From an uncultured Gammaproteobacteria bacterium (lineage in GTDB: Bacteria; Patescibacteriota; Patescibacteriia; JAHIZJ01): a stretch of DNA of 64,000 nt. The stretch is taken from assembly GCA_964371245.1 (NCBI GenBank), contig CAYJKP010000003.1, positions 8,986 through 72,985 of the forward strand, given 5' to 3'. Of this stretch, positions 33,031 to 51,992 are shown in pieces (position 1 is the stretch's first letter; each line of letters begins with the position of its first letter). The notes under the pieces were generated by a model, which had not been told where the DNA came from, ran no database searches, and saw only the letters and a list, made by a program, of their open reading frames with translations. Position numbers and translations under genes: made by a program.

Positions 33031-33034
33031 ATTG

Positions 33035-33289: not shown

Positions 33290-33292
33290 ATT

Positions 33293-33631: not shown

Positions 33632-33640
33632 GATGTTTTT

Positions 33641-33775
33641 CTAGACTGACAGCCGGCGTCTTTTCTTTAGCCTTCGACGACGCAAAATCGCTTTACCGTT
33701 TTTTGTGCTCATTCGTTGGCGGAAACCATGTTTTCGCGCGCGGCGTCTTTTTTTTGGCTGATAGGTTCGTTTCGG
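33641..33775 (-). CDS. rpmH: 50S ribosomal protein L34
   Basis: [45 protein letters not shown], 44 aa (the track ORF extends further upstream). Confidence 0.9.
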
Positions 33776-33867
33776 CATAACTAAAAAGAATAATAATTTC
33801 GTGGTTATTCTACCAAGAAGTGTCGGTTTGGTCAACGATTATGTTTATTAGCCATTTCCTCCACCCC

Positions 33868-33876
33868 TCATCCACA
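33868..33876 (+). promoter_or_regulatory. DnaA-box-like 9-mer TCATCCACA in rpmH-dnaA spacer
   Basis: 8/9 match to TTATCCACA, upstream of dnaA. Confidence 0.35.
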
Positions 33877-33975
33877 TGTTATAAACCTTTTTTATTTAGA
33901 CAACCGTTTTATCTTCGGCGATTTCATGGTATAGTCTAGTTCTGAGTTTTTATTTTTTTGCTATATCGACGGGCT

Positions 33976-35358
33976 ATGACAAACGAACAACTCTGGGAAT
34001 CAGTACTTGGAGAATTAGAACTTACCCTAAGTAAAGCAAACTTCACAACCTGGTTTAAAAATACGTTTATTGCTTCGTATGACGAGAATATTGTTGTGAT
34101 CGCGGTACCAAATGCTTTTACAAAAACCTGGTTTGAAAACAAATACAACGCCCCAATTCAAAAAACGCTTCGGCACCTGACAAGCAATGAACATTTAGAG
34201 GTAACCTATAAAATTACCAGCGCCCATAATTACCGGGTGCGCGAACTTCAGTCAAATGATCTGGCTGGGCCATCGGCGGCGGCTCCTGAAACAAGCGCCG
34301 TGCCGGCCGAGGAAATAAACACCGGTCTGAGCGAGGGTGGTTTAAACCCACGCTATTCGTTCGATAATTTCATCGTCGGGAAGGGAAATGAGCTGGCCAA
34401 GGCAGCGGCCGTGGCCGTAGCCAATAAACTCGGGACTGTCTATAACCCGCTTTTTATTTATGGCGGGGTCGGCTTGGGTAAAACCCACCTCATGCAGGCG
34501 ATCGGCAACGAGGTACTGCAGAAGCAAAAAGGGAAACAGACATTGTACGTGACTTGTGAAAAATTTACGAGCGAATTTATCCAGGCGGTTGGACAAGGTA
34601 ATGCAGCTGATTTCAAAAATCGGTATCGCAACGTTGATGTCCTCCTAATTGACGACATTCAATTTCTGGCTGGCAAAGAAGGGACGCAGGAAGAGTTTTT
34701 TCATACGTTTAACGCCCTCCATCACGCCAACAAACAAGTAGTCATTAGCTCTGATCGACCGCCGAAGGCCATCCCAGCGCTCGAAAATAGGCTGATATCG
34801 CGTTTTGAATGGGGGATGATCGTTGATATCTCGCAGCCCGACTTTGAAACGCGTATGGCAATTCTTGAATTAAAATGCTCCAGCAAGAAACGCGTTTTAG
34901 ACCAAAAAATACTGCATTTTATTGCTAATTCTGTCCAAAACAACATTCGCGAACTCGAGGGCGCCCTGAATAGAATCCTCGCCTACCATGAACTTAATAA
35001 CACCGAGCCAACCCTTGATTCGACGCGCGCCCTACTTTCGAACATTACCAGTCGACCAAAGAAAGGAGCGGTCGTCCCAAAACACGTTATTCAAACGGTA
35101 GCGAGTTTTTATGATATTCAGATTGAGGATATTACCGGCGCCAGCCGTAAAAAAGAGCTCGTTGTTCCTCGACAAATGATTATGTTTCTGTTACGCGAAG
35201 AGGTGGGGTGTTCCTACCCGCTGATTGGCCAGGAGCTTGGCGGGCGCGATCACACCACCGCCATGCACGCACACACAAAAATTAAAAACGAATTACAAAC
35301 CAACGAAAAACTCAACCAAGACATACAGCTCATCAAGCAGCGTTTATATAATATGTAA
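33976..35358 (+). CDS. dnaA: chromosomal replication initiator DnaA
   Basis: MTNEQLWESVLGELE N-terminus; AAA+ Walker A GGVGLGKTHL; Walker B LLIDDIQF; C-terminal DNA-binding helix-turn-helix (track start TTG 33958). Confidence 0.95.
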   Translation: MTNEQLWESVLGELELTLSKANFTTWFKNTFIASYDENIVVIAVPNAFTKTWFENKYNAPIQKTLRHLTSNEHLEVTYKITSAHNYRVRELQSNDLAGPSAAAPETSAVPAEEINTGLSEGGLNPRYSFDNFIVGKGNELAKAAAVAVANKLGTVYNPLFIYGGVGLGKTHLMQAIGNEVLQKQKGKQTLYVTCEKFTSEFIQAVGQGNAADFKNRYRNVDVLLIDDIQFLAGKEGTQEEFFHTFNALHHANKQVVISSDRPPKAIPALENRLISRFEWGMIVDISQPDFETRMAILELKCSSKKRVLDQKILHFIANSVQNNIRELEGALNRILAYHELNNTEPTLDSTRALLSNITSRPKKGAVVPKHVIQTVASFYDIQIEDITGASRKKELVVPRQMIMFLLREEVGCSYPLIGQELGGRDHTTAMHAHTKIKNELQTNEKLNQDIQLIKQRLYNM

Positions 35359-35590
35359 GCCTGTGCAGGATGTGTGGGCGGTGTGTGACTCGATTGTGTG
35401 AAAATTCTTGCTCCTTCTATCTCCAATAAAACTTATCCCGCTTGTACGCCCGCATCATGCACGAATCCTCCCTCGCTTGCCCACATGCCAAATCGTTGTT
35501 TCATCAATCTGGGCGGGACGAATGTGATCGCTCGATGAGTTATCAACGTCTCTATATCTATTACTATATTTATTAATCTCCCTAAGCTAT
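35359..35590. promoter_or_regulatory. candidate oriC (degenerate DnaA boxes + AT-rich unwinding element)
   Basis: TGTGTG(G/A) repeats, CTTATCCCG, GTTATCAAC, TTGCCCACA (7/9 matches to the DnaA box) followed by TATATCTATTACTATATTTATTAATCTC. Confidence 0.4.
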
Positions 35591-36694
35591 ATGAAATTCT
35601 CTTGTCTCCAGGAAAATTTAAACAAAGGTCTGGCTCATGTCGGACACCTCGCAAGCAAAAATGTTTCTTTGCCGATTTTGAACAACATCATGATTCAATG
35701 CGAGAACGGAGCTATCAAACTTTCGGCAACGAATCTCGAGGTTGGCGTCAACACGATTATTCGTGGCAAGGTTGAGGCCGAGGGTAAATTAACGATACCA
35801 GCTCGTACCATCTCGGATTATGTTTCGTTGTTGTCTGACTCAAAAGTTGAGGTGGTGAGCGAGGGGCTTGAGCTGAAGATTGCTACCAAGAACGCCCGCA
35901 CAACCATCAAGGGCCAATCCGCCGATGAGTTTCCCTTGATCCCGAAAATAGAGCATAAAAACCCCTACCAAGTTCACACGAAAGACCTCAAAAAGGCTTT
36001 AAATCAAGTGGTTTACGCGGTGGCACAAGATGAATCACGGCCTGAAATAAGTGGTGTTTTTTTCAGTTTTTCGGGTAATTATCTGACGGTTGTGGCGACG
36101 GACAGTTATCGCTTGGCTGAGCGAAAAATTAAACTCGTTCAGCCAGCCAAAGAGACGGTTGAATTAATTGTGCCAACCCGGACGATCCAGGAATTGACAC
36201 GCATTATTGGCGAGGGGGCCGAAACGGTCGAAATGTACTTTACTGAAAATCAAATTCTTTTCGTCTGCGAAGGCATTGAGTTAATCTCTCGGGTGATTGA
36301 GGGGCGCTATCCGGATTATAAACAGATTATTCCGCAAGAACATAAAACACTGGCGACGTTTGATAAAGAAGAAATGATTAAGGCGGTGAAGTCGGCTGCG
36401 TTGTTTTCGAAATCCGGCATCAACGACGTCAGTCTAAAAATCCAACCGGACAAGCATCAGTTGGTTGTGGCTTCAACAAACGCCCAGCTCGGTGAAAGCA
36501 TAACTGAGGTACCAGCCGAAATTGAGGGCGACGCGAACGAGGGTGTATTTAATTATCGTTATCTCATTGACGGTCTTCAGAATCTTGATGTTGACGGCGT
36601 TATGCTGGCGTTAATCGATGGGGCTAATCCCGGCACCCTTCGGGCGAAGAGTGGTACTGACTTTCTCTACATCATTATGCCGATAAAACAGTAG
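35591..36694 (+). CDS. dnaN: DNA polymerase III beta sliding clamp
   Basis: MKFSCLQENLNKGL start, three-domain length 367 aa, position after dnaA. Confidence 0.9.
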   Translation: MKFSCLQENLNKGLAHVGHLASKNVSLPILNNIMIQCENGAIKLSATNLEVGVNTIIRGKVEAEGKLTIPARTISDYVSLLSDSKVEVVSEGLELKIATKNARTTIKGQSADEFPLIPKIEHKNPYQVHTKDLKKALNQVVYAVAQDESRPEISGVFFSFSGNYLTVVATDSYRLAERKIKLVQPAKETVELIVPTRTIQELTRIIGEGAETVEMYFTENQILFVCEGIELISRVIEGRYPDYKQIIPQEHKTLATFDKEEMIKAVKSAALFSKSGINDVSLKIQPDKHQLVVASTNAQLGESITEVPAEIEGDANEGVFNYRYLIDGLQNLDVDGVMLALIDGANPGTLRAKSGTDFLYIIMPIKQ

Positions 36695-39880: not shown

Positions 39881-41110
39881 TTGTCATTATACCAAAAGTC
39901 GACTATAATTATAAGTACTATGGCGACAAAACGAAAAACACCTGAAGACTTGCTTAGCCGCGGGGTTGAGGAGATAATCCAGCGTTCGAGCCTGGAGGAG
40001 AAACTCCGCAGCGGGCGGCCGTTGCGCATCAAGCACGGCGTCGACCCGACGACCCAAGACCTTCATTTGGGCTATGCGACGGTCTACCAGAAACTCCGGG
40101 CGTTTCAAGAACTTGGCCACACCATTATTTTTTTAGTCGGCGATTTTACCGCTCGATTTGGCGATCCGACGGATCGCGTTCAACAACGACAGCTTCGTGC
40201 CAAAGACGACATTGAGGCCAAAGCGCAAAGCTACATCAATCAAATTGGAAAAATACTAGATATCAAGAAAACGGAAATCCGCCGAAACTCTGAATGGTAC
40301 GAGAAAATGTCAGCCGAAGAACTTCTCCAGCTGCTGTCCCGGTTTACCGTCTCCCGCCTGTTGGAGCGGGACATGTTTGAAAAACGGCTCAAGGCGAAAA
40401 AAGAAATTGGCTACCACGAACCCGTTTACCCGATTCTCCAGGCCTACGACTCGGTTCAGCTGCAATCAGATTTTACGGTCATTGGCACGGACCAAAAGTT
40501 TAACGAACTCCAGGGCCGGATTTTGCAGAAAGAATTCGGCCAGGCGCCGCAGGACGTCATGACAATGAAGCTGCTGGTCGGCACCGACGGACAGCGCAAG
40601 ATGAGCCAGAGCCTCGGCAACTACATCGGCATCACCGAATCGGGAAATGAAATGTACGGCAAGGTCATGTCGATACCGGACTCAGTCATCCTTCATTATT
40701 TTGAACTAGCCACCCAGGTGCCGCTCAGCGAGTTAAAAACGATCAAGGAATCAATCGCGGGCGGCGAGAATCCCAGAAACATCAAGGCGCGCCTGGCCAA
40801 GGAGATTGTCCAGCAATACCACGGCGCGGCCGAAGCCAAGAGGGCGGCGGCTGAATTTGACCGTGTGTTCCGGGACAAGCAAACGCCTAAAGAAACCATC
40901 GCCTACGCGGCGCCTAAGCGCCCCGTCACCCTTTCGGACGTGCTGGTTGAGACAAAACAGGTGTCCAGCAAGTCCGAGGCGCGCCGTTTGATAGAACAAG
41001 GCGGCGTTAAGATAGACGGCCGGCCGCACCTCGACTGGCAGCGCCCGGTAAGCCTAAAAAAGGGAATGGTTGTCCAGGCCGGGAAGCGGAAGTTTATAAA
41101 GATTCAATAG
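39881..41110 (+). CDS. tyrS: tyrosine--tRNA ligase
   Basis: HLGY (HIGH), KMSQSLGN (KMSKS), C-terminal S4 domain; alt. start 39920. Confidence 0.85.
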   Translation: MSLYQKSTIIISTMATKRKTPEDLLSRGVEEIIQRSSLEEKLRSGRPLRIKHGVDPTTQDLHLGYATVYQKLRAFQELGHTIIFLVGDFTARFGDPTDRVQQRQLRAKDDIEAKAQSYINQIGKILDIKKTEIRRNSEWYEKMSAEELLQLLSRFTVSRLLERDMFEKRLKAKKEIGYHEPVYPILQAYDSVQLQSDFTVIGTDQKFNELQGRILQKEFGQAPQDVMTMKLLVGTDGQRKMSQSLGNYIGITESGNEMYGKVMSIPDSVILHYFELATQVPLSELKTIKESIAGGENPRNIKARLAKEIVQQYHGAAEAKRAAAEFDRVFRDKQTPKETIAYAAPKRPVTLSDVLVETKQVSSKSEARRLIEQGGVKIDGRPHLDWQRPVSLKKGMVVQAGKRKFIKIQ

Positions 41111-41121
41111 ACTTTCAATAT

Positions 41122-41156
41122 AAATAACGCGGACAAGAGGATGCCGCGTTATTTAT
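41122..41156 (+). terminator. rho-independent terminator after tyrS
   Basis: ATAACGCGG-ACAAGAGGATG-CCGCGTTAT then TTATAT. Confidence 0.6.
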
Positions 41157-41175
41157 ATAGTCAGAATATTATGCC

Positions 41176-41261
41176 ATATAACGTTTGCGTATATCTGATG
41201 TCGCGCTAGCGATATGTGTGGAGGCTCCAGAAGAGCCGTAACCAGATATACGCTGTTAGCT
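41176..41261. repeat. attC-like site 1 (terminal, abuts tyrS terminator)
   Basis: ATATAAC-GTTTGCGTAT...ATACGCT-GTTAGCT. Confidence 0.7.
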
Positions 41262-41325
41262 GATCGTATTCCTTTTCTTTTGTTCTCTAGCAAGAGAACG
41301 TGTGAAAAAAATCTTTCAAATTTCT

Positions 41326-41601
41326 TTAATTTTTACTAGTTGCCACTAATATTGCAATAACTGAAACAACTAGAGAAGCAAACGCAATAAAAGTGGAAAT
41401 GAAAGTTAATCTGAGAGTCCGATTGAGATTCTTCAGTTCTGACAACTGCATCGCCTCAGACGCGCTTAGAGTCATTTTACATTTGCTGCATTGAAACACT
41501 GCTGGAACCATTTCACCACCATGACCAGTATTAGTGTTGGGCGATGCCTCTCTTAGTGTTTGCCAATCATGTTTGCATTTAAGTGCTTCCATGGGGTCCA
41601 C
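41326..41601 (-). CDS. cassette ORF: small protein with CxH...CxxC zinc-ribbon-like motif and C-terminal TM helix
   Basis: 91 aa, CKHD...CSKCK, hydrophobic tail. Confidence 0.45.
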   Translation of the reverse strand: MDPMEALKCKHDWQTLREASPNTNTGHGGEMVPAVFQCSKCKMTLSASEAMQLSELKNLNRTLRLTFISTFIAFASLVVSVIAILVATSKN

Positions 41602-41604
41602 GAG

Positions 41605-42588
41605 TTATTTATTAGTTGATATCTTCTCCCAGTCGAAACCAGAATTGAATATATTCTGGAACGGTTGAATAATACCCAAGGTTGTTAAATCACCAATTGT
41701 GCCCCAGGTAGGGATACCAAAAAGGCAAGCCTGATTATTCTGCTTCATTACTGCGAGCCCACCGGAGCTACCTGTATCAATAAGTGCAGTAGTGAAATAA
41801 TTATCTCGTTCCTTGCCCGAAATGATCCCCTCAGTAACAACCATGTGACGCCCCATTCGATACTGGGAATATGCTTCAAATCTTGCCAACATTATATATT
41901 TTTCTAAGTATTCAGCTGTAGGCGAAGGAAATTCTGCGGTGTCCGCTGAACTCGGATAACCAAATACATAAACCTTTTCCCCTATCGGATTCCTAAAATT
42001 ACAAATTGGAAATGATTTCGAATTGTTTTTTAACAAACGTGATTCCAGAATACTTAACAAATCGTCTTTTGTAGGTTTCCCCGTATTTTGTTCCTCTTCG
42101 TTAAGGTAATCGTTTATATCATTTATTTCGTCTGGTATCAGTATTGCCAAGTCAACAATATCACCCCTTCTTACAGAGTCGGAGGAGTATGAGAAACCAA
42201 TTCGATTAGCACCCTGAGAATCACTTTTTTGTATTTTACCTTCCTGTGCGAAATCAACAGAGCAATTATCTAAGTAGGATTTATCGGGATCGTGTAGTTG
42301 AGCAACGTGTTCATTTGTAATAACCACTCTTCTCATTTGCTCACCAGTCTCAAGTAATAGATAGGTTCCAGATCCAGCGACAATACCCTGATATTCCCCG
42401 TCAATGGTTTTACCAGGACAGATAATTGATCCAATTGACTTTGAAACATTTTTGACTTCGTCCACCGTTAATTCACTACTTACGATAACATATCGGAAAA
42501 TTGCAATATGAAAGAAATAGTCAGCAATAACGAATAAACTTGCAAGTAAAGCTAGTAGAATGTACTTATTTCTAGATAAGGATTTCAT
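41605..42588 (-). CDS. cassette ORF: membrane-anchored trypsin-like (S1) serine protease
   Basis: N-terminal TM; catalytic-triad contexts TNEHV, DLAIL, DTGSSGG. Confidence 0.6.
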   Translation of the reverse strand: MKSLSRNKYILLALLASLFVIADYFFHIAIFRYVIVSSELTVDEVKNVSKSIGSIICPGKTIDGEYQGIVAGSGTYLLLETGEQMRRVVITNEHVAQLHDPDKSYLDNCSVDFAQEGKIQKSDSQGANRIGFSYSSDSVRRGDIVDLAILIPDEINDINDYLNEEEQNTGKPTKDDLLSILESRLLKNNSKSFPICNFRNPIGEKVYVFGYPSSADTAEFPSPTAEYLEKYIMLARFEAYSQYRMGRHMVVTEGIISGKERDNYFTTALIDTGSSGGLAVMKQNNQACLFGIPTWGTIGDLTTLGIIQPFQNIFNSGFDWEKISTNK

Positions 42589-42656
42589 AGAGAAAGAAAT
42601 TTGATAGATTTTTTACACACTACGGGCGATAGCCCAGAAAAGAAAAGGAATATGCC

Positions 42657-42713
42657 ATATAACGTTTGCGTATCATACGACGTACTAGATATGTCGTATA
42701 TACGCTGTTAGCT
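42657..42713. repeat. attC-like site 2
   Basis: ATATAAC-GTTTGCGTAT-...-ATATACGCT-GTTAGCT; centre is an imperfect palindrome. Confidence 0.75.
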
Positions 42714-42785
42714 GATCGTATTCCTTTTCTTTTGTTCTCTAGCAAGAGAACGTGTGTAAAAAATCTTTCAAATTTCTTTTCGCCT

Positions 42786-44069
42786 TCATTTCAGTAAATC
42801 ATCAAGCTCACAAGAGAGTAATGCCGACTTATTAAGCACGATCTGCTCTTTTGGATTTAGTTTATCTGACGTCATGCGTATAAGCTTTGTTGTGATCGTA
42901 TCACCGAGCATGATTCGGTTAGTTTTCTTGAAATAATTTTCCGTCTTCTGATAAAAAAGCGTGGCATACTGTCTCAATTTATCTTCAGACGGCGGATGAC
43001 TTGTCGCCCCATTGCTTGTAAATTCAATCTTACCTTTTATTTTCTCGCTTTCTTTGGTTGGCAAATTACCTTCGTTAAAATCAATCCAGTAATCGCTCAT
43101 CAAATACATAACGCGAACAAACCCGCCATCTTCTGTTTTGTAGGTATAAATGAAATAGAAATTATCAGGCATTAAGTCGTGGTGCACTCTGATATGCTCT
43201 AATTCTGTAACAGTACGTATTTTGTAATCATCAAGCATCCGCAGATAGCTTTCTCGCCAATTCTGAAGCCAGTTCTCAACGTACATGCGATTTGTAAAAA
43301 GTGGCATAAGGTCCTGCTTGAGATTTTCATCGCTCACTTTATTCATCTGCAGTGTTAGCTTGTCAAAAATCGCCCGTGGATCGTTTACATTAATACCTTT
43401 GGCAACAAGATAATCAATATCAGGAACCACTTTTTTATTCATATACCAAAGAAGGTCGTAGATATCCCTTCCCTTTTCCTCGTACACTGCTTCACCCACA
43501 CCGCGAGTGCCACGCAAAAAAATGGCGGCTATCTTGCTTGCCATCAAAGCAGACATGTTGTAGGTCAAAATAACGAAAGAGAGCTGATCACGGTTCATTG
43601 GTCGACGCTCAGTAACCGTTTTAGGAGCGACAAAATGATTAAGATCTATTTTTACATGGACCTGATTGGACGCGTGACCAAATCCTAATGCTTCGCCAAC
43701 ATGGAATTTTAAAAGGAGCCCTCTGCCGGTCGTTATTTTTATTGTCAGGAAATTTGGATCAGTACCATACGTATCTTTAAAGTGATCCTCTAGCTCCTTT
43801 TTTAGATCTGCTAAAAATGATCCCGTTACAGTATGGGATACTTCAAAATCCAAATCCACTGACATGCGGTCAAGGCCGTGAATGATCCGAAGTGCCGAAC
43901 CCCCATACATCACCCATTTGCGGTATTCAGTATGATGATAAACAAAATTGAGAATGTAAAACTGCAAAGCTTCTTTCAGCTTGTTTCTGCGGGTTTCGGC
44001 ATCAAGATCGCCATAAACGGAGAGCTCATCAAGCTCTCTTTTAAGAATAGTTAGGATTTGTTCACTCAT
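42786..44069 (-). CDS. cassette ORF: AbiEii-family nucleotidyltransferase toxin (type IV TA)
   Basis: MYGGSALRIIHGLDRMSVDLDFEV matches the DUF1814/AbiEii motif GGTAL...RxSxDxDF. Confidence 0.7.
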   Translation of the reverse strand: MSEQILTILKRELDELSVYGDLDAETRRNKLKEALQFYILNFVYHHTEYRKWVMYGGSALRIIHGLDRMSVDLDFEVSHTVTGSFLADLKKELEDHFKDTYGTDPNFLTIKITTGRGLLLKFHVGEALGFGHASNQVHVKIDLNHFVAPKTVTERRPMNRDQLSFVILTYNMSALMASKIAAIFLRGTRGVGEAVYEEKGRDIYDLLWYMNKKVVPDIDYLVAKGINVNDPRAIFDKLTLQMNKVSDENLKQDLMPLFTNRMYVENWLQNWRESYLRMLDDYKIRTVTELEHIRVHHDLMPDNFYFIYTYKTEDGGFVRVMYLMSDYWIDFNEGNLPTKESEKIKGKIEFTSNGATSHPPSEDKLRQYATLFYQKTENYFKKTNRIMLGDTITTKLIRMTSDKLNPKEQIVLNKSALLSCELDDLLK

Positions 44070-44679
44070 GAATATGTCTTTTAATCATGGTATAAAAATT
44101 TTCTCGTTCGTGTGTTTCCATTTCATCAATATCTATTCTTAGTTCCTTGACGAGTACATTAATGTTTTTCAGTCTCATGCCTCGGAGTTGTCGAGTCTTG
44201 AAATACAGCAGATCAAACAGTGCCTTTGAGGGTGAGGCGATAAAAAAATCAAATGGGCCCTTAATCAGTGAGAAGCCTGAAAATAAATCCTTCTTGATGG
44301 ACTGATAGGCAAAGTTTCCTGCTTTTGTCTGGTACTCTCTTGTAACCTTTGGCGTTACTGAGGTTACAGAATGTATAGCTTCCGTTGTGAGATTATAATA
44401 CTGAAGTGCTGCCCATGAACTCACATACGACGGAGTTCGAATAACGTTAGCGAGATAAAACGAATAGGAAACCTTGCCCTTGTTTTTATTATAGATATCC
44501 GAGGATACATATAATGCCCTCTTTAGCTGGAGAATTTCCTTGAATTTTAAGTAGCGGCTGATGTAGGTATCAACCGTAGTGTCCTTAAGCCCTAACTGCA
44601 TACCAAGCTGGTATACAGTGCTTTTACTAAAATAGGGCAAGGTTTTTAGCTGTTCTAAGAGATTTTTTCGGCTTTTCAT
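44062..44679 (-). CDS. cassette ORF: AbiEi-family antitoxin/transcriptional regulator
   Basis: N-terminal wHTH, LKRALYVSSD motif, 8-nt overlap with toxin gene in antitoxin-then-toxin order. Confidence 0.65.
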   Translation of the reverse strand: MKSRKNLLEQLKTLPYFSKSTVYQLGMQLGLKDTTVDTYISRYLKFKEILQLKRALYVSSDIYNKNKGKVSYSFYLANVIRTPSYVSSWAALQYYNLTTEAIHSVTSVTPKVTREYQTKAGNFAYQSIKKDLFSGFSLIKGPFDFFIASPSKALFDLLYFKTRQLRGMRLKNINVLVKELRIDIDEMETHERENFYTMIKRHIHE

Positions 44680-44823
44680 AAATATGACAATAGTGTATCA
44701 GATGTGAAACGTAATGTCAATTCAATGAATACTGAAATCTCCCTACTTGAATGATGTGGGGAAAGAAATTTGAAAGTTTTTTACACATCCCGGGCATCAG
44801 CCCGAAAAGAAAAGGAATATGTC

Positions 44824-44876
44824 AGCTAACGTTTGCGTGTATGCGATGTGATAATATCGTATACACGCTGTTATCG
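44824..44876. repeat. attC-like site 3
   Basis: AGCTAAC-GTTTGCGTGT...ATACACGCT-GTTATCG. Confidence 0.75.
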
Positions 44877-44899
44877 GATGTATCAAATAATTTTCGTCT

Positions 44900-45468
44900 T
44901 CATTGCTGAATGACAAAGAATTTTTCTTCCGGGATTTTGTAGACAGGTAGTTTTTCGCCACGCTTTTCAAGCTCTTCCAAGTCATTTTGTTTTTCTTCCG
45001 TGTAGTGAACAAAAGCTTTGATTCGGAGTATACCGAGGCCATTTCTGACAGTTGTGCCATGGGTGCCTGTGTGGAAATATGAAGAAAGAGCACATGCGCC
45101 CGCTGATGAGCCACTGACGACCTTGCCTTTGATAAGTGCATTAAGGTTTTCAATCGATCTTAGGACGTTGAGTAGCATGTCTGTGTCACCACCACGCATG
45201 TACACCACATGAGTTTCTTGTAGCTGCTCCTGGAAGATTTTAATATCACTGTCTGCACAGATGAACTTCAAGCTCTTTTTGGGCGAAGCGGAAGAAAAAC
45301 GGTCTTTGTCTTGAGCTAAAAGTTTATCCCACTGGTCTCTCTGCCTTGCGAAATAGATACAGAGAATCGTAACAGGATCAGGAAGTCCTTTTGTCATCTC
45401 AATGAAAAATTGTTTGTTGTCCTCTGTGGGTCTGCCAGTTTCACCACCATGGAGGATATACTTTGTCA
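44900..45468 (-). CDS. cassette ORF: S51 peptidase (dipeptidase E / cyanophycinase-like)
   Basis: MTKYILHGGETG N-terminus and nucleophile context SGSSAGA; start taken at the internal Met so the ORF does not run through attC site 4 (track start 45634). Confidence 0.65.
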
Positions 45469-45496
45469 TCACAAGTAGAAAATTATTTGATATTTC

Positions 45497-45586
45497 CGAT
45501 AACGTTTGCGTATATCTGATGCCCCGCTCAGCGGGGTGTGGGTGGATCCGCCTCTGGCGGAGTAACCAGATATACGCTGTTATATG
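45497..45586. repeat. attC-like site 4
   Basis: CGATAAC-GTTTGCGTAT...ATATACGCT-GTTATAT; centre carries CCCCGCTCAGCGGGG and CCGCCTCTGGCGG hairpins. Confidence 0.75.
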
Positions 45587-45696
45587 GTGTATGCTTTTCT
45601 TTTCCCAACGTCTAGTCGGGCTACTTTTCTGCAATGGACAAATTTAATTTTCATGTTGGCAAGGGCGACGTTGGATGTAGCAACCCGTATTGTTTC

Positions 45697-46626
45697 TTAG
45701 GTACTGGTAAAATACTCGGTCAGCACGAAGGTGATCCAAATAAGAAATAAGATAACGCCTTCTTTTTTAGATATTGTTTTTCCTGTACGCATGAAATACG
45801 AAAGGACAAATGAGGCCAGGAGCATGAACGCGCCGGTGACGTAAATAATTTTCTGCGGAAAGGCGAATGGATTGATCATTGAAAGCAGTCCAACCACGAT
45901 TGTTGCGTCGGCCAGCACTGTACCTAAAATATCTCCGACTGCCAGAGAATCGTCGTGCTTTCGGACGGCCTGCAATGAAAACAGCAGTTCTGGTATGGTT
46001 GTGCCAATCCCGACAACGAGCATGCCAACGAGGACGGGCGTAATCCCCAAACTCTGCGCCAGATTCTCGGCTGATGTCACGGTAAAATGTGCACCGACGA
46101 GCAACACGGCCATGCTCGCAAGCAACAACAGGGTATTTCTAAGCCGATCACCTTGACCATCTGCAATCGATTTTGCGTCATGGCCATTCTTGAACGAAAA
46201 GAGATAGAATCCGACGCCGGCAATAATGAGTGCCGCCCCCTCCCAGCGCGAATAGTACCCGTCGAAGCCGAGGAGAATCGGGATCAGAAATAAGAACGGG
46301 TAGAGAATGTTATTTTTCAACACCTTGCTTTCGATTTTAATCCTCCGTCCTGATATGGCGATGATGATGGCGAAGACGAGCGTCAAGTCGGCGACGTTCG
46401 AGCCGAACAACGTCCCCAGGCCAAACGCCGGAATACCCTCAAAGGACGAGTTGATGGCAATAAACGTCTCCGGAAGAATAGAGATGACGGCGACAATGAT
46501 CATGCCGACGGCGTATTTGGATAGGTGAAAGTTTTCCGCCAGACGGACGGCGTATTTGGTTGCAAGGATTGCACCTTTGATGACCAAAAACAGCGAAACC
46601 GACAAAATAAATATGTTTTGTATCAT
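45697..46626 (-). CDS. cassette ORF: Ca2+/cation antiporter (CaCA/YrbG family)
   Basis: Two alpha-repeats (ILPETFIAINS, GTTIPELLFSL), 10 TM, 309 aa. Confidence 0.75.
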   Translation of the reverse strand: MIQNIFILSVSLFLVIKGAILATKYAVRLAENFHLSKYAVGMIIVAVISILPETFIAINSSFEGIPAFGLGTLFGSNVADLTLVFAIIIAISGRRIKIESKVLKNNILYPFLFLIPILLGFDGYYSRWEGAALIIAGVGFYLFSFKNGHDAKSIADGQGDRLRNTLLLLASMAVLLVGAHFTVTSAENLAQSLGITPVLVGMLVVGIGTTIPELLFSLQAVRKHDDSLAVGDILGTVLADATIVVGLLSMINPFAFPQKIIYVTGAFMLLASFVLSYFMRTGKTISKKEGVILFLIWITFVLTEYFTST

Positions 46627-46742
46627 GCGCCGCCCTTCATGTTCATTCCAAGGATGAGAATAGTAACTCTATCCATCATACAATAAATTTGTTCATTGCA
46701 GAAAAGTATTAGGCGTCAGCCGTGAAAAGAAAAGCATATGCT

Positions 46743-46799
46743 ATATAACGTTTGCGTCTCATACGACGTACTTACTATGTCGTATAGACGCTGTTGTCA
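46743..46799. repeat. attC-like site 5
   Basis: ATATAAC-GTTTGCGTCT...ATAGACGCT-GTTGTCA. Confidence 0.75.
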
Positions 46800-46852
46800 G
46801 ATCGTACATTTTTATCTTCAAAGTGAAATTTCTCACGCTAATTACCAAAATT

Positions 46853-48274
46853 TTATTCAGCCGTAGGTTGGAATGTTGAAAGAATTTTACTGTATTCAGG
46901 ATGATCTTGCTCAAAACCCTTAGCCCAAGAAAAAGTGATAAAATTTAATCCAACGGGACAATATGTGGCAAGATATTCAGCAAAACAACTTTCGGTCTGA
47001 CGGGTTACTGCTATCCCGTTTATTTCTAATGACTGCTGGTCGTGATTACAATTATATTTCTCTGCAATATCCGCTGAAGAGGCATTAGCGGGAGCCACAT
47101 CGGGGATCGCGTTGGTTACCGTTACAGCTATTTCAGGGCCAAGTTCGATGCTCGATGTTTCACCTGAATTGGGGGGAATAATAGCCACAAGGTTTGTCTC
47201 GCCATCATTAATAGTCCAATCTGGTGGGTATTGAAACGTAAAATGATAATCTTGGTTTATATATATCTTCCAATCTGAAGCTATTGAGTTCGTATTCAGA
47301 TTTTCAGAGCGATGTTGGTAAATTGGGAGATTGTCCCCATAATCCATTTTTACGTCCGCATGGATGCCATTCCATAATGTCTCCAGCGTGTCATCATGAA
47401 TGCTGTGGTCATATTGGAGAATCAAATTCTGGCCGGTTTTCGAAAGAGGATAAATCTCCTTTGTGATCGTCCCCTGCCACCCAATGGTCGTTTCCGTTTT
47501 CTCCACCTGGCGATGATAGACATACCTGTCACCTTGGAGCGTACCCCAATTCATCATTGTTTTTAAAGCATCTTCTGGAATATCAGCCTTGGGGTCATCT
47601 TCCGATTGCACGGACAAGTTCAACGGAATGGACAACCCGATACTCGAGGTGTCAGGGACCGTATTGCCCTCAGCGTAGAAGCTAAACCTATACACATTTT
47701 CACTCGGATAAGCGTTTTGCGCATGAAAAATATGCTCAGGAATATGAAAGCGCAGACCCGCTTCGTTGAATTCGCGACTGGACGATTGGGCGTACTCGCG
47801 TTCCCAGCGCTCAAGTGCCTGCTCAGTTCTTTCACAGCCAATCAGTATCGTTTGCCAGGTGCAGCTGTTTTTCCAGAGCAGCTTATCCGGATACGCCCGA
47901 ACCGGGATAAAATCCTCACTCGTCCGGCATTGGGAAAGGGGGAAGTAGTAGTAATCGCGAAACTCGGAGTTTCTCCAATGCAACGGGTTGTCCGTGGCAA
48001 TCAAGGTGAGTCCGTTATCCAGAGTTAGGGAAGTCCTGGGTTGGGCATTGATCGCTTCGACTATCGTGGCAAATTGCGTATCTTGGCACACACCCTCTCC
48101 GAGAGTCTTGCTTGTAGATTTGTACTCACCCCATGCTTCAACTTTCGTGTCAATCGCCACATCAAACATGCCAAAGACATCTTTAACGAATCCAACGTAA
48201 TATGTGCCAAGAAATACAGCAATGATTGCCAACGCGACGAGGCCGTACTTTAAAATATGTTTAGGGGTATTCAT
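46853..48274 (-). CDS. cassette ORF: hypothetical secreted/membrane-anchored protein (473 aa)
   Basis: N-terminal TM/signal anchor, W/Y-rich, no known motif. Confidence 0.5.
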   Translation of the reverse strand: MNTPKHILKYGLVALAIIAVFLGTYYVGFVKDVFGMFDVAIDTKVEAWGEYKSTSKTLGEGVCQDTQFATIVEAINAQPRTSLTLDNGLTLIATDNPLHWRNSEFRDYYYFPLSQCRTSEDFIPVRAYPDKLLWKNSCTWQTILIGCERTEQALERWEREYAQSSSREFNEAGLRFHIPEHIFHAQNAYPSENVYRFSFYAEGNTVPDTSSIGLSIPLNLSVQSEDDPKADIPEDALKTMMNWGTLQGDRYVYHRQVEKTETTIGWQGTITKEIYPLSKTGQNLILQYDHSIHDDTLETLWNGIHADVKMDYGDNLPIYQHRSENLNTNSIASDWKIYINQDYHFTFQYPPDWTINDGETNLVAIIPPNSGETSSIELGPEIAVTVTNAIPDVAPANASSADIAEKYNCNHDQQSLEINGIAVTRQTESCFAEYLATYCPVGLNFITFSWAKGFEQDHPEYSKILSTFQPTAE

Positions 48275-48335
48275 ACTCTACTTATTATATGTATACATTG
48301 TGTGGAAATGAACGAAATAAGATAAAAATGTATGT

Positions 48336-48444
48336 CTGACAACGTTCTGGTATCATGCGACGTGGTGAGTGAGCGCAGGCGGTAGAATTGTGCGGAGCAC
48401 ACCGCCGGAGCGAACGAATCCATGTAGCATATACCGTGTTGTGC
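48336..48444. repeat. attC-like site 6 (long variable centre)
   Basis: TGACAAC-GTTCTGGTAT...ATATACCGT-GTTGTGC. Confidence 0.7.
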
Positions 48445-48449
48445 GGAGT

Positions 48450-49061
48450 TTACCCGAACGATGTCTGAAGTTCGGACCAAGTAATAACCTTTGCCCAATT
48501 GTGCAGAGGGTAATTATTGAGAATCATCTCTTTCTCTTCGGGCTTGCCGGAATAGACATCAACGCCTTCCTTTAGCACCTTAACATTGTATGCGCGAAAC
48601 GTAAGCTCTTGTGCCGTACAGAAAACACAGCAATCGATTGTGAGTCCGATCAAGACAACCTCGTCTACCTCCTGAGGTGTTCCAATAGTAGAATTAAGCC
48701 AGTTCGTGAACGCTTGAGGATCTTGATATGGCAAGCCGGGTTCTTTCGTGGAATCACCGATATTGTCTCTTGTCCAAATCGGAGAATTCATGCATTTAAT
48801 CCAAATATTCTCCAATTTCACATCAGCAGGAAGCTCTGAAGTGTATCCCTCCTCCCCCGGACGCGTGGAATCATCCAAATCGCCAGGACGAGGTTGTCGA
48901 TAATCCGAAATGATCTCTGCGACTTTAATATTGCGCTCACGCAAGTACGGCACAAGAGTTTGCTTGATAAAAGCAACATTCGGGTGTGGTCGATAATGCT
49001 TGCCACCTTCCGCGCTGAACTCTTTTTGCAAGTCTACAGAGATGATTTTAATAGTCGACAT
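48450..49061 (-). CDS. cassette ORF: isochorismatase-family cysteine hydrolase
   Basis: IISVDLQKEF start and catalytic-Cys context VLIGLTIDCCVFCTAQE. Confidence 0.65.
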   Translation of the reverse strand: MSTIKIISVDLQKEFSAEGGKHYRPHPNVAFIKQTLVPYLRERNIKVAEIISDYRQPRPGDLDDSTRPGEEGYTSELPADVKLENIWIKCMNSPIWTRDNIGDSTKEPGLPYQDPQAFTNWLNSTIGTPQEVDEVVLIGLTIDCCVFCTAQELTFRAYNVKVLKEGVDVYSGKPEEKEMILNNYPLHNWAKVITWSELQTSFG

Positions 49062-49113
49062 TTATTAACGTGAAATTAAGTGATATTGAATTGGAATAGC
49101 GAGGGTAAATTTC

Positions 49114-49176
49114 GCACAACGTTTGCGTATCATGCGCCGTGGAGCGAAGTGGAATGGCGTATATACGCTGTTGTAC
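49114..49176. repeat. attC-like site 7
   Basis: GCACAAC-GTTTGCGTAT...ATATACGCT-GTTGTAC. Confidence 0.75.
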
Positions 49177-49282
49177 GCTGTTCAAAAAATATTTTTCTTT
49201 AGGTATTTAAAACACGCGAAACCAAACCATGACAGTAGGTAACATTTCGGTGGCATTATTTCGTGCTGGAGCCGTGATGCTG

Positions 49283-49813
49283 CTACTGCGCGTTGACCGT
49301 AGAACGATAAAGGTTTTTCGTTAATGCCCACCAGAAGGAGGTTTGAGTAATATTGGGTTGCGAATTAGCATCCTCTTGGAGAGTAATCACATCATCACTG
49401 ATATCTACAACAGTCCATTTACCAGGACTGAATATGTAGGCACCATATTTAGCACTGGACTTTGGAACGCGTAATACCTTTAGTGCGCCATTCTCTTTGT
49501 ATGCTTCAAACGTAGCAAGAACAGATCCGTACCCCCCTTCGGCAATATCAAACGGCTCTTGCTGGGGGGCTAAAGCCGAGTATGCATAGAACTTGAAGGA
49601 TCCGGCAAATGTTTCGCTGGTATTATAGTAGACGCCAAGCAGCACAAAAGCGAATCCGATGAATGCAAATAATCCCGCGACAGCAAGTCCGGTACGCTTC
49701 CAGGGAGTAACGTGTGTTTTAATAACGAGCCACACTATGACAGCTGCGGCGATAACTAGGATCGGTAAAATTACGAACCAGGTAACCATGTTTGTTCCAA
49801 TTTGTTCATTCAT
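49283..49813 (-). CDS. cassette ORF: hypothetical membrane protein
   Basis: 176 aa, two N-terminal TM helices. Confidence 0.45.
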   Translation of the reverse strand: MNEQIGTNMVTWFVILPILVIAAAVIVWLVIKTHVTPWKRTGLAVAGLFAFIGFAFVLLGVYYNTSETFAGSFKFYAYSALAPQQEPFDIAEGGYGSVLATFEAYKENGALKVLRVPKSSAKYGAYIFSPGKWTVVDISDDVITLQEDANSQPNITQTSFWWALTKNLYRSTVNAQ

Positions 49814-49903
49814 AGGTATTTTGTTAAAAATATTGACATATTAAATTTAGAAAAGATGCTCTGGCTACTTTCATAGGTCGCCAGAGCGTGTCAGCCGCTT
49901 CAC

Positions 49904-50275
49904 TTACGGACAGCTTCCACTCCACGGCTCGGGCTCGCCGTCATAGCCGAATTGCAGACAGCCGAGGTGAGTGGTTCCACTCACACACTTCGATGGCCAG
50001 GTATGCGACTCGACGCCGATCCCGTTTACCCAGGCATTTGCGATGTAGCCGCAGCCGGACGAAAGACCGGTGAACGAAATGGTTCTGTAGCCGAAAGGAA
50101 GCGAGACGTTGGTGTCCTCTGCCATCTTCTGACCGTTCTGCCAGATCTGCACGGTGTACGAGACAGACGTCGGCCCCCTGAGCGTGACCTGAGCGGTGTC
50201 GGCCAGAGCGGGAGTGACCTCCCCCGCGATGAAGAATGCTGCGAGAAGCAGGAGCAACACGACTTTCGTTTTCAT
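49904..50275 (-). CDS. cassette ORF: small secreted Cys-containing protein, GC-rich
   Basis: Signal peptide MKTKVVLLLLLAAFFIAGEVTPALA; local GC clearly above neighbours; 8-bp-stem hairpin terminator just downstream (49866-49895). Confidence 0.5.
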   Translation of the reverse strand: MKTKVVLLLLLAAFFIAGEVTPALADTAQVTLRGPTSVSYTVQIWQNGQKMAEDTNVSLPFGYRTISFTGLSSGCGYIANAWVNGIGVESHTWPSKCVSGTTHLGCLQFGYDGEPEPWSGSCP

Positions 50276-50469
50276 TTCAGCCCTCCAAGTTCAACCTGAA
50301 CAGACGACCACTGAGTTTCCGAACAGCTAAAATAACCGTGCCTCCTTTCTCGGCGTTACTCAGCCGATGATGGCCTAGGTTCGAAAGAGCATACTACTTT
50401 AATACTTATTATACTCTGCTAATTCTAGCCAGTCCAGCGGATATTAAAGAAAAATATTTTTTGAATGGC

Positions 50470-50526
50470 GCACAACGTCCGGGTATCATACGCCTGTACT
50501 CGTATGGCGTATATACCCTGTTATCG
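50470..50526. repeat. attC-like site 8
   Basis: GCACAAC-GTCCGGGTAT...ATATACCCT-GTTATCG. Confidence 0.75.
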
Positions 50527-50548
50527 GATGTTAAGAAAATTTTTCCGT

Positions 50549-50872
50549 TTACTCCAGGCGAACATCATCTTCCTTCTTAAACTCTGGCGAGCAAACAAGA
50601 AAAATTTTCATTTTACCCACAAAGTTGTAGGCGGTATTTATAGGTATAAATACAACATCGTCTCTTTTGACAGAATATTTTTCTTCTTCAATAAAAAAGT
50701 CACCAGATCCTTCAGCAATATAGTAAATTCTGTCTTCATTCAAACACTTCACTTTTCCATGATTACCGTTTATCTCAATTAGCGCACCACTATATTGCTG
50801 CGTGAGTTTATACTCCTTAATATTCATTGGGCCGACTTTTTTGTTGTTTGTTAGTTCGCTAGCAATATACAT
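50549..50872 (-). CDS. cassette ORF: cupin-domain protein
   Basis: 107 aa, double-stranded beta-helix pattern (...YYIAEGSGDF...DVVFIP...). Confidence 0.5.
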   Translation of the reverse strand: MYIASELTNNKKVGPMNIKEYKLTQQYSGALIEINGNHGKVKCLNEDRIYYIAEGSGDFFIEEEKYSVKRDDVVFIPINTAYNFVGKMKIFLVCSPEFKKEDDVRLE

Positions 50873-50902
50873 ATGAATTGATTTATAATATTTTCTTAAT
50901 TT

Positions 50903-50985
50903 CCGATAACGGGCCGCGGCTGATGCGACGTGGCCGGAGCCCCGCTTTGCGGGGTGACGGACATGTTCGCATAGGCGCTGTTGTG
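50903..50985. repeat. attC-like site 9 (between first cassette and recombinase; GC-rich centre)
   Basis: CGATAAC-GGGCCGCGG...GCATAGGCGCT-GTTGTGC; centre has a CCCCGCTTTGCGGGG hairpin. Confidence 0.6.
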
Positions 50986-51032
50986 CGATGTCGCAGCAGC
51001 GACGAGCAGAACAGCGACGGTAGGCGCGGCCC

Positions 51033-51173
51033 GTTGTGGCGAGGAGCGAAGCGATTTCGCCACAACTAGTTATTATGCGTACTTAAGGCCTATTATGCCC
51101 CTATTATTGCATGTTTTGCGTAATAGTGCTAGTTTATTAGCGACGGGAATATTTTATCCGTTATTTTTATTTT
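51033..51173. promoter_or_regulatory. candidate attI / cassette promoter region
   Basis: Perfect 10-bp inverted repeat GTTGTGGCGA...TCGCCACAAC (51033-51066), then two direct TGCGTA repeats (51076-51081, 51117-51122) resembling the attC L-box, in AT-rich DNA abutting the recombinase start. Confidence 0.35.
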
Positions 51174-51992
51174 ATGACCGTTCAAACCCACATTGACCAG
51201 ACAGTCAGAGAGCTGAAAATACGCAACTACAGTCCGAAAACCGTCAAAGCCTATGTCTACGGAATTCGGGAATACCTGATTTACAAAAATACGGATTTTC
51301 ATGTGTACAGCGAAGAAAGCGTTAAAGATTACCTCCATATGCTGGAACAGAGGGGCGTGTCGGCGCAAACCAGAAATGTGTGCCTAAACGCGATAAAATT
51401 CTTTTACTGTGCCGTTGTGCGCTCCGTGTCCGGCGTCGAGGTGCGTTCGGCGAAAAAAAGTAGGAGCCTGCCGGTCGTGCTTTCCCGGGATGAAATAAAG
51501 ACTATAGTTGATAGCACGCGAAACGCCAAGCATCGGCTGCTGATCTCTCTGGCTTACGGCGCCGGCTTGCGGGTCAGCGAGGCGGTGAATCTGCGAACGG
51601 GCGACATCGATACGAATGAGCTGACGGTGCGGGTTCAGGGAGGCAAGGGCAATAAAGACCGGCTGACGCTGTTTCCTGGCCGCCTGGCGGATGATATGAG
51701 AAATATGCAGGCCGGAAAAAGCGCTGATGATTTTGTGTTTGCCAGCGAACGCGGTGGCCCCTTGACCGCGAGAACCGCTCAGAAAATATTCGAACAGGCG
51801 CTGGCCAGATCCGGCATTAAAAAAAACGCGACCTTCCACAGCCTGCGGCACAGTTTTGCCACGCACCTGCTGGAAAACGGCGTTGATATACGGTACGTTC
51901 AGGAATTACTCGGCCATAGTAATATCAGGACGACGCAGCTGTACACACAGGTTACAAATCCGATGTTGAGAAACATAAAAAGCCCGCTGTAA
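51174..51992 (+). CDS. tyrosine site-specific recombinase, IntI-like N-terminal half but without the IntI-specific extra domain (Xer-length catalytic half)
   Basis: 272 aa; YSPKTVKAYVYGIREYL, SRSLPVVLSRDEI, KHRLLISLAYGAGLRVSEAVNLR, GKGNKDR, LRHSFATHLL, LLGHSNIRTTQLYT (catalytic Y); ~60 aa between GKG..R and HxLRH. Confidence 0.75.
   Translation: MTVQTHIDQTVRELKIRNYSPKTVKAYVYGIREYLIYKNTDFHVYSEESVKDYLHMLEQRGVSAQTRNVCLNAIKFFYCAVVRSVSGVEVRSAKKSRSLPVVLSRDEIKTIVDSTRNAKHRLLISLAYGAGLRVSEAVNLRTGDIDTNELTVRVQGGKGNKDRLTLFPGRLADDMRNMQAGKSADDFVFASERGGPLTARTAQKIFEQALARSGIKKNATFHSLRHSFATHLLENGVDIRYVQELLGHSNIRTTQLYTQVTNPMLRNIKSPL

Follow-up and report, generated by a model that had tools for sequence, protein, structure and literature searches.

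A probable integron-like gene-capture platform beside an IntI-related recombinase that lacks the additional domain

Results

Identity and domain content of the recombinase

The window analysed here is a 64-kb stretch of DNA, read whole, from a 1.18-Mb genome of an uncultured member of the Patescibacteriota (contig CAYJKP010000003.1, positions 8,986 to 72,985). It carries the gene of a small tyrosine recombinase, preceded by an attI-like site and, farther to the left, by an array of hairpin sites lying between genes of the opposite strand (Table 1). A sequence-only reading of this DNA had proposed that the recombinase resembles the integron integrase IntI in several segments, appears to lack the additional domain (I2 helix) that is specific to IntI, and might service the adjacent attC-like sites.

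The reading frame of the recombinase was confirmed together with every peptide quoted from it. The protein matches PF00589 (1.1e-44) and PF13495, the SAM_4 N-terminal domain typical of IntI and Xer proteins, and by alignment its catalytic R-K-H-R-H-Y set is intact (R in GLRVSE, K in GKGNKDR, HSLRH, H in LLGHS and Y in TQLYTQV). Its score against the XerA equivalog NF040815 of NCBIfam was borderline, at 220.1 bits for a cut-off of 220. The integron integrase model TIGR02249 was matched in two separate stretches with 218.5 bits, under its cut-off of 265, and PRK15417 with 151.5 bits, under its cut-off of 435. Neither the XerC model (188.7 bits, cut-off 335) nor the XerD model (183.9 bits, cut-off 330) was reached.

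The distance from the GKGxKDR box to the HxLRH box, which the sequence-only reading had put at about 60 residues against about 100 in IntI1, measured 58 residues in the window recombinase, 100 in IntI1, 101 in VchIntIA, 60 and 62 in XerA and 62 in XerC; among 117 family members the median was 58 (range 58-65). As references we used an IntI1 sequence 100% identical to annotated intI1, in which the IntI1 peptides cited in that reading were indeed found, residues 8-319 of VchIntIA taken from the PDB alignment, and XerC and XerD of E. coli K-12. In a MAFFT alignment, IntI1 and VchIntIA carry two inserts (~33 aa and ~11 aa) between the GKGxKxR and HxLRH boxes, and both inserts are absent from the window protein, from ten array-linked relatives and from four Xer references. 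A home-made hidden Markov model (HMM) of the IntI insertion found no match in 270 family members and relatives (E>0.5), and scored IntI1 and VchIntIA at 52-71 bits. The best sequence match in the PDB was VchIntIA (2a3v), aligned in two blocks only (query residues 11-171 and 201-272), so that IntI residues 174-245 are mostly without a partner; Pyrococcus XerA aligns as a single block. That the extra segment is missing, as had been suggested, is agreed upon by the two-block match, the alignment and the insertion HMM. In a confident AlphaFold model (pLDDT 87.3), only a helix, short strands and a second helix lie between the catalytic-Lys hairpin and the HxLRH helix, and the closest structure is again 2a3v (E=6e-17, TM 0.74, 316 alignment columns for 272 residues), followed by XerA. 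The alignment also bore out the IntI-like segments said to be unlike XerC/D: the motifs LPVVL(S/T)RDE(I/V), KH(R/K)L and C-terminal (K/R)SPL are present in the recombinase and missing from the Xer references.

Two observations concern more distant proteins. A near relative of 324 aa (P0166), 49% identical in the N-terminal half and with the same C-terminal motifs, has an unrelated insertion of ~45 aa where the IntI additional domain sits, without an ALxxKYP-type motif, and from this protein the position seems prone to insertions. Many of the next-nearest relatives (P0142-P0270) are 340-590 aa long, with N-terminal extensions of 80-300 aa before a core that aligns as a single block.

Phylogenetic placement

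In a neighbour-joining (NJ) tree of 60 sequences (270 columns, 500 bootstraps), the IntI sequences were monophyletic with 100% support, and a group of IntI plus the recombinase family and its relatives, to the exclusion of XerA, XerC and XerD, received 99%. The search for VchIntIA homologues gave Vibrio IntIs only, which limits the IntI diversity represented. In this tree, with its four Xer references, the family does not fall within canonical Xer. Neither the additional domain nor a position within XerC/XerD, the two outcomes that the sequence-only reading had named as contrary to it, was found. The family and its relatives formed a group outside IntI in 61% of replicates, a value too low to decide between a position sister to IntI and one ancestral to it. 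Among the origins suggested in that reading (a reduced IntI, an ancestral-like IntI or a co-opted Xer-like recombinase), the protein may be of the reduced or of the ancestral-like kind, between which the 61% bootstrap does not discriminate.

Structure and strand asymmetry of the hairpin sites

A motif recurs between the minus-strand open reading frames (ORFs) to the left of the recombinase, with five same-strand matches against 0.24 expected by chance, and each copy folds as an imperfect hairpin. A covariance model built from these five copies located nine sites in the window, all on the plus strand at 41175-50988 between tyrS and the recombinase, and no further credible match anywhere in the 64 kb. 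Rfam holds no family for the hairpin sites and detected only two tRNAs in the window. Read on the recombinase-sense strand, a site has first a variable flank, then (T/C)AAC and a G with three further nucleotides. A 13-bp stem encloses a variable loop, and its returning half is followed by T, GTT(A/G) and a second variable flank. Site length is 56-201 nt (median 103).

The stem is supported by covariation. In an alignment of 34 sites, taken from the window and from twelve further genomes, 96% of the stem cells were paired and 11 of the 13 stem pairs showed compensatory changes; the covariation score was 0.559, compared with 0.156 in shuffled alignments, and sliding one partner by 1-3 columns lowered the pairing to 24-40%.

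The two strands of a site are not equivalent. In 53 of 58 sites the plus (integrase-sense) strand has the more stable fold (p=8e-11), and G.T pairs number 2.03 per site on this strand compared with 0.52 on its complement. With the cleaved and exchanged strand assigned from cassette junctions, the arm carrying the cleaved AAC was found to have 4 unpaired nucleotides, compared with 1 on the opposite arm, in 30 of 32 sites, and an extra mid-stem base lies on the AAC-bearing arm in 13 sites and on the opposite arm in 1. A bulged C, in the context GTAT-C-ATACG, was considered as a marker of polarity; it is present in only 13 of 32 sites, and was therefore dropped in favour of the asymmetry between the 4-nt and 1-nt arms. 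The exchanged arm reads AAC, ~7 nt and TAT..CGA, and the attI-like site is comparable, with AAC, TCGTTAT and TATGCGAA. The motif AT[A/G]CGA is kept in the L arm of sites across lineages and occurs twice in attI as well. The box consensus of the sites is RNRYAAC/GTTRYNY.

The bottom strands of canonical attC sites are reported to show the same trend in stability and G.T pairs; in these sites the arm with the extrahelical bases faces the one on which the 5'-AAC-3' of the recombined strand is cleaved (PMC5027507). The hairpin sites depart from this canonical asymmetry, in that their extrahelical bases lie on the AAC arm instead.

An attI-like site before the recombinase gene

The attI-like site of the window has an R box CGCCACAAC at 51058-51066, of which the last three positions (51064-51066) are the crossover triplet AAC, followed by TAGTTATTATGCGTAC, and a second repeat TTGCATGTTTTGCGTAA at 51107-51123. 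Comparison of loci revealed a conserved non-hairpin motif in which a variable flank is followed by (Y)AAC and, directly adjoining, TCGTTnTTATRCGAA ... TTGTATATTATRCGAA; its second half, ~25 nt on, reads TTGTATATTAT(A/G)CGAA. Of 29 loci, 23 have the motif, as a rule 100-118 nt ahead of the start codon. One contig (L002) begins precisely at the TAAC of this site, and cassettes meet attI precisely at AAC in L047, L049, L050 and L051. That the site is an insertion point is indicated by L049, where, compared with L050 and L047, a cassette has been inserted between AAC and the remainder of attI. A segment of the motif, TTATGCGAA, is similar to the XerC arm of E. coli dif when that arm is read as its reverse complement.

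Footprints of cassette recombination

Were cassettes to enter by crossover in the AAC/GTT triplet, the halves of an R box would end up in neighbouring sites. We compared the 7 nt left of AAC with three partners in 33 consecutive site pairs. Complementarity was 5.45/7 with the 7 nt right of GTT in the preceding site, 3.30/7 with the flank right of GTT in the same site and 3.19/7 in random pairs; the shifted pairing was the greater in 29 pairs, the smaller in 0 and tied in 4 (p=1e-6). Independent metagenome loci gave 5.4 vs 4.07 for the same rule (n=15, p=0.011).

Relocated cassettes were found with P0016, a relative 62% identical to the window recombinase that occurs on many contigs on which the downstream genes (Mur ligases, L19, FtsH, S1) are identical and the upstream arrays differ. 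A block of 1,026 nt, comprising a 259-aa ORF and its 90-nt site, is present at 99.9% identity in L049 (5569-6594) and L051 (1325-2350). The block separates the PALP cassette from attI in L049 and is distal to that cassette in L051, so that the order of the two cassettes differs although the integrases are identical; in L047 and L050 it is missing from the attI-proximal position. The end of the PALP cassette (...ATGTCATATAAC) is joined to attI (TCGTTTTTATACG...) in L047, L050 and L051 and to the body of the site of the 259-aa cassette (GTATCGCG...) in L049. The end of the 259-aa cassette (...TTTCACATAAC) is joined to attI in L049 and to the body of the PALP cassette's site in L051. All of these joins, of cassettes to one another and to attI, fall at the conserved AAC. 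The terminal flank of each cassette is perfectly complementary to the GTT flank of its own site (TCACATAAC/GTTATGTGA and GTCATATAAC/GTTATATGAC).

To judge from these sequences, a cassette on the integrase-sense strand is made up of C, the site body, the GTT flank, the ORF (antisense), a flank and AA. The junctions and the flank complementarity indicate that an ORF has its own site behind it, as it would in an integron. They also put the crossover within AAC on the strand directed to the integrase, which is the arrangement described for integrons (PMC5027507).

In a separate contig (L046), whose integrase is identical to those of L047-L051, part of the array (678-2854) is turned round, with minus-strand sites and plus-strand genes, perhaps through an inversion between oppositely oriented sites.

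Recurrence across genomes and metagenomes

The recombinase family is large, with more than 7,800 clusters at E<1e-20, proteins of ~270 aa and identities of 60-66%, and the named members come from Patescibacteria lineages. With one genome per species, a refined model found ~60 sites in ~19 loci. Every site precedes the recombinase gene and shares its strand; no site lay downstream in these loci, even where 10 kb were available. As a replicate we used 80 independent metagenome loci that had not entered model building, with counts taken from relatives of at least 50% identity. Sites were found in 15 of the 16 loci with at least 600 nt upstream, and there were 28 same-strand matches in 99 kb of upstream sequence, against 0 in 140 kb downstream. 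On eight contigs the sequence stops 100-400 nt before the recombinase gene, as would be expected if a repetitive or variable region started there. In all, the gene, its orientation, the attI-like motif and the polarity of the array are kept together in more than 35 loci of very different lineages, mostly hosted by bacteria of the candidate phyla radiation (CPR), and no second tyrosine recombinase was present in any flank of the related loci (+/-10 kb). The adjacent attC-like sites assumed in the sequence-only reading are thus real, structured and covarying, and tied to the gene family in position and strand across many lineages. As to the suggestion that the enzyme services them, the parts open to comparison held, namely absence of the domain, a conserved attI-like site and cassettes moved at AAC; catalysis itself is suggested by genomic linkage.

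A distant subgroup of recombinases (34-44% identity, also without the IntI insertion; L026, L084, L092, L107, L118 and L126) has sites of the same kind, but these lie downstream of the gene and on the other strand, so that the gene is inverted relative to the array. Locus L026 belongs to a cultured strain, Paenibacillus agaridevorans T-3040 (NZ_BDQX01000116.1, ~10800-13540); GTTATATGAA of its last site pairs with TTCATATAAC|TCCTTATTT, a sequence ~90 nt from the 3' end of the gene.

Composition and borders of the array

The features of the array are collected in Table 1. Its GC content is 0.39-0.46, compared with ~0.51 in the flanks, and on the right it is bordered by the recombinase and then by housekeeping genes.

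Table 1. Recombinase, attI-like site, hairpin sites, cassettes and left border of the array in the window
Feature	Position	Strand	Evidence and remarks
Tyrosine-tRNA ligase gene (tyrS)	39881..41110	+	PF00579, 2e-69; housekeeping left border of array
Terminator-like hairpin after tyrS	41126-41150		Sequence
Site S1, attC-like, distal array end	41175..41263	+	Covariance model, 39-56 bits
Site S2, attC-like	42656..42715	+	Covariance model, 72-81 bits
Site S3, attC-like	44823..44878	+	Covariance model, 51-64 bits
Site S4, attC-like	45496..45587	+	Covariance model, 36-51 bits
Site S5, attC-like	46742..46801	+	Covariance model, 72-80 bits; R' GTTGTCAGA complementary to TCTGACAAC of S6
Site S6, attC-like, 111 nt, long variable loop	48336..48446	+	Covariance model, 51-62 bits
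Site S7, attC-like	49113..49178	+	Covariance model, 64-70 bits
Site S8, attC-like	50469..50528	+	Covariance model, 61-73 bits; R' GTTATCGG complementary to CCGATAAC of S9
Site S9, GC-rich composite, attC-like	50903..51042	+	Covariance model at 50903-50988, 43 bits
Eight ORF-bearing cassettes	41264..50902	ORFs all -	ORF list, Pfam, composition; ORFs point away from recombinase
Cassette content: 91 aa and 327-aa trypsin-like protein		-
Cassette content: AbiEii (42786-44069) and 204-aa partner		-
Cassette content: S51 peptidase		-
Cassette content: Na/Ca exchanger	45697-46626	-
Cassette content: 473-aa protein		-
Cassette content: isochorismatase-like protein	48450-49061	-
Cassette content: 176 aa and 123 aa		-
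Cassette content: cupin-like protein, 92-107 aa		-
attI-like site	51058..51123	+	110 nt before recombinase start codon
Tyrosine recombinase, 272 aa	51174..51992	+	Presumed platform integrase; IntI-like, without IntI-specific insertion (I2/additional domain)

The site nearest to the recombinase, S9, has two nested GTT boxes, the inner one near 50980 and the outer R' GTTGTGGCGA at 51033-51042, and its long hairpin has a dG of -56 kcal/mol. The outer R' flank (GTGGCGA) is complementary at 7/7 positions to the attI flank TCGCCAC, and a mini-hairpin at 51033-51066 is formed by GTTGTGGCGA, 12 nt and TCGCCACAAC. Site S9 with this mini-hairpin is in effect an ORF-less cassette adjoining attI. Three ORF-less double sites in L009 (635-3042), spaced 67 nt apart, resemble this arrangement, and GC-rich integrase-proximal sites similar to S9 are also present in L021, L033 and L017. 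At the opposite end of the array, S1 and S2 (compared over 41170-41325 and 42649-42780) have both flanks in common, including ~70 nt towards the ORF that contain a small GTTCTCT...AGAGAAC hairpin, and differ in their inner stems; the likeness suggests duplication or exchange between sites. Their junction is also the sole one in the window that departs from the shifted pairing of flanks (3/7). The AbiEii-family toxin gene overlaps the gene of its 204-aa upstream partner (42786-44679), and the two look like a toxin-antitoxin or abortive-infection pair. Pairs of this kind often stabilise chromosomal integron arrays.

Markers of a replication origin lie at 32263-36694, in the order yidC (-), a 0.9-kb AT-rich gap (33031-33957), dnaA (+) and dnaN (+), and this region is likely the origin. 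Since gene orientation confounds the GC skew inside the window, the origin was placed by yidC-dnaA-dnaN and not by skew alone. The cassette platform lies 7-17 kb from these genes, and hence not near the terminus if the origin is taken to be next to dnaA.

Discussion

The window array is best understood as a chromosomal integron-like gene-capture platform, with an integrase that is related to IntI and lacks the additional domain, and from the sequence evidence at hand we put the probability of this reading at roughly 80%. Several points weigh against it. All 23 contigs of the window's own population that carry an identical integrase have the same array, with no gain or loss of cassettes, and turnover was seen in the relative P0016 and not in the window's genome. 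Catalysis of the cassette events by the neighbouring recombinase is proposed on the ground of conserved adjacency and genomic linkage. Similarly, we infer a folded single-stranded substrate indirectly, from stem covariation, the strand bias in stability and the lack of central homology. The tree was made by NJ with four Xers as references and, for IntI, Vibrio sequences and IntI1 only. The NF040815 score of 220.1 vs 220 and the classification in PMC8138268 mean that the recombinase may also, or instead, resolve chromosome dimers, and with 64 kb of the 1.18-Mb genome in view, a canonical IntI or another Xer may be encoded elsewhere.

In the mechanism that we propose, the adjacent recombinase would catalyse the joining and movement of cassettes. 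It would bind the R box, formed by flank and AAC paired with GTT and flank, together with a partly sequence-specific L arm, AT[A/G]CGA. The integrase-sense strand of the folded single-stranded hairpin would be cut between the second A and the C of AAC, that one strand would be exchanged with attI, and the junction would be resolved by replication. Homology between attI and the sites does not reach past the C, and we therefore favour single-strand exchange with replicative resolution over exchange of two strands. The strand would be chosen by a length asymmetry, the exchanged arm having ~7 nt from AAC to the L arm, as in attI, and the opposite arm being 3 nt shorter; G.T pairs would stabilise the exchanged strand, and the extrahelical bases read by the I2 helix would have no part in the choice. 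A spacing asymmetry combined with a sequence-specific L arm would fit such a recombinase, because it has no I2 helix with which to read extrahelical bases. With a fork moving rightward, the best-folding strand of the sites would be the lagging-strand template, which would favour hairpin formation.

An explanation that we regard as unlikely is that the recombinase is the single housekeeping Xer of its lineage and the adjacent site its dif, at which small elements resembling integrative mobile elements exploiting Xer (IMEX) have piled up as cassettes. The recombinase reaches the XerA model NF040815, if only by 220.1 vs 220, and has no IntI insertion; the attI motif TTATGCGAA is reminiscent of the dif arm named above, and there are precedents in the adjacency of xerS and difSL and in the single-strand integration of CTX phage by XerCD, for which the attP is a folded single strand. 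The 'Cand' subgroup of Xer-related recombinases is likewise presumed to consist of Xer replacements (PMC8138268). The site, however, is 7-17 kb from yidC-dnaA-dnaN and not near the terminus, its contexts in other genomes are unrelated (mur genes, ftsH), and the family groups with IntI and not with the Xer references. The units are promoter-poor cassettes of ~640 nt with a single gene and a site architecture common across phyla, reshuffled within arrays, which is how integrons behave and not phages or IMEX. The difference from an integron-like platform is mostly one of naming, capture of cassettes by the recombinase is compatible with both, and the enzyme may have a dual role.

We consider it very improbable that the array is a cluster of attC sites lacking an integron integrase (CALIN), served in trans by a canonical IntI encoded elsewhere, with the neighbouring Xer-like gene a bystander. 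Only 64 kb of the genome were examined and CALINs are common in bacteria (PMC9024848), but the gene, its orientation, an attI-like motif at a constant distance of 100-118 nt and the polarity of the array are co-conserved in more than 35 diverse loci, none of whose flanks holds a second tyrosine recombinase, and the geometry of the sites is mirrored relative to the preference of IntI (PMC5027507). Even less credit is due to the notion that the hairpins are ordinary intergenic repeats, similar to repetitive extragenic palindromes (REP), or terminators whose nearness to the recombinase is coincidental. Hairpin repeats are common between convergent or tandem genes, and all copies are identical in the window's own population; shifted flank complementarity across ~600 nt and the exact AAC junctions of a relocated cassette could nevertheless not arise from static repeats, and a distribution strictly on one side and one strand relative to the gene speaks against coincidence. 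We rejected the terminator reading in view of the shifted flank complementarity and of the lack of a T-run after the hairpins.

The integron-like platform favoured here shares with the systems of IntI1 and VchIntIA an integrase gene divergent from an array of mostly single-gene cassettes, in which every ORF has behind it an imperfect hairpin site of its own, variable in length and with ...AAC and GTT... boxes at its borders. Crossover within AAC on the strand that points to the integrase, division of the R-box halves between neighbouring sites, a non-hairpin attI beside the integrase as the entry point for new cassettes, and a recombined strand that is more stable and richer in G.T pairs are further likenesses, as are the IntI N-terminal motifs, the C-terminal SPL tail and VchIntIA as the best structural match. 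The differences from integrons lie in the missing additional domain or I2 helix (58 vs 100 residues, with scores under the TIGR02249 and PRK15417 cut-offs), in unpaired nucleotides on the cleaved-AAC arm (4 vs 1 nt, with or without one bulged base) rather than on the opposite arm, in the lack of a symmetric unpaired central spacer, in an L arm that keeps the AT[A/G]CGA motif shared with attI, in boxes of the form RNRYAAC/GTTRYNY where the canonical form is RYYYAAC/GTTRRRY, and in hosts that are mainly candidate-phyla bacteria.

With single-recombinase Xer systems (archaeal XerA, XerS-difSL and XerH-difH), the recombinase has in common its size, two domains, a lack of the insertion, a box spacing of 58-62 and an NF040815 score at the cut-off. 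In xerS-difSL, too, a conserved recombination site lies directly beside the gene, as it does at the window recombinase. Unlike those sites, the window site is next to the origin region and not the terminus and is the entry point of a cassette array, and the family groups with IntI in the tree and has IntI-specific motifs missing from the Xer references. A folded single strand of CTX phage is reportedly integrated by XerCD (Val et al. 2005). That system also combines a recombinase without an I2 helix with a proposed one-strand exchange between a hairpin and a double-stranded site and with replicative resolution; its mobile units are phage or plasmid genomes, whereas those of the window type are promoter-poor gene cassettes with a common family of sites, which are reshuffled and form arrays of up to 11 or more.

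The protein clade is already known as sequence. Smyshlyaev et al. 2021 placed candidate-phyla recombinases in the Xer-related 'Cand' subgroup with a presumed Xer role, and described the IntI insertion as 'not fully conserved' within their 'integron-like' subgroup; for these subgroups the paper reports no hairpin sites, attI or cassettes (PMC8138268). Archaeal integrons have been reported with the additional domain (PMC9668308), and the IntegronFinder 2.0 survey of complete RefSeq genomes reports no elements of the present kind (PMC9024848). In the open-access literature covered by our searches we found no description of hairpin-cassette arrays or attI sites beside candidate-phyla recombinases. 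The platform is integron-like in its working and fails two defining features of integrons, the additional domain and the attC asymmetry. We lean somewhat, at little better than even odds, towards a large undescribed class of integrons in the candidate phyla (Patescibacteria), with a distant gene-inverted version in, for example, Paenibacillus agaridevorans, whose IntI-related recombinase never had or has lost I2 and whose attC geometry is mirrored.

In practice, integron integrases are defined by the additional domain, which lies around patch III. IntegronFinder demands it through the intI_Cterm profile, activity is held to depend on it, and recombination of folded single-stranded attC is held to have become possible through this innovation. 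Surveys of integrons would therefore systematically miss this whole class of elements, in a radiation estimated at 15-50% of bacterial species. A current view is that acquisition of I2 created single-strand hairpin cassette recombination (PMC7790495). Should the family be the sister or the ancestor of IntI, such recombination would be older than the I2 helix, contrary to that view. The platform makes the origin of integrons from Xer-like recombinases testable. It also offers a natural experiment on the selection of strand and orientation without the reading of extrahelical bases, and a small, 270-aa integrase with short, sequence-definable sites could be of use as a tool. For organisms with tiny genomes, whose acquisition of accessory genes is poorly understood, it would provide a route of gene capture, here of an AbiE toxin pair, peptidases and transporters. 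Taken together, the comparisons indicate that integron-type gene capture appears to work without a domain that has been thought indispensable.

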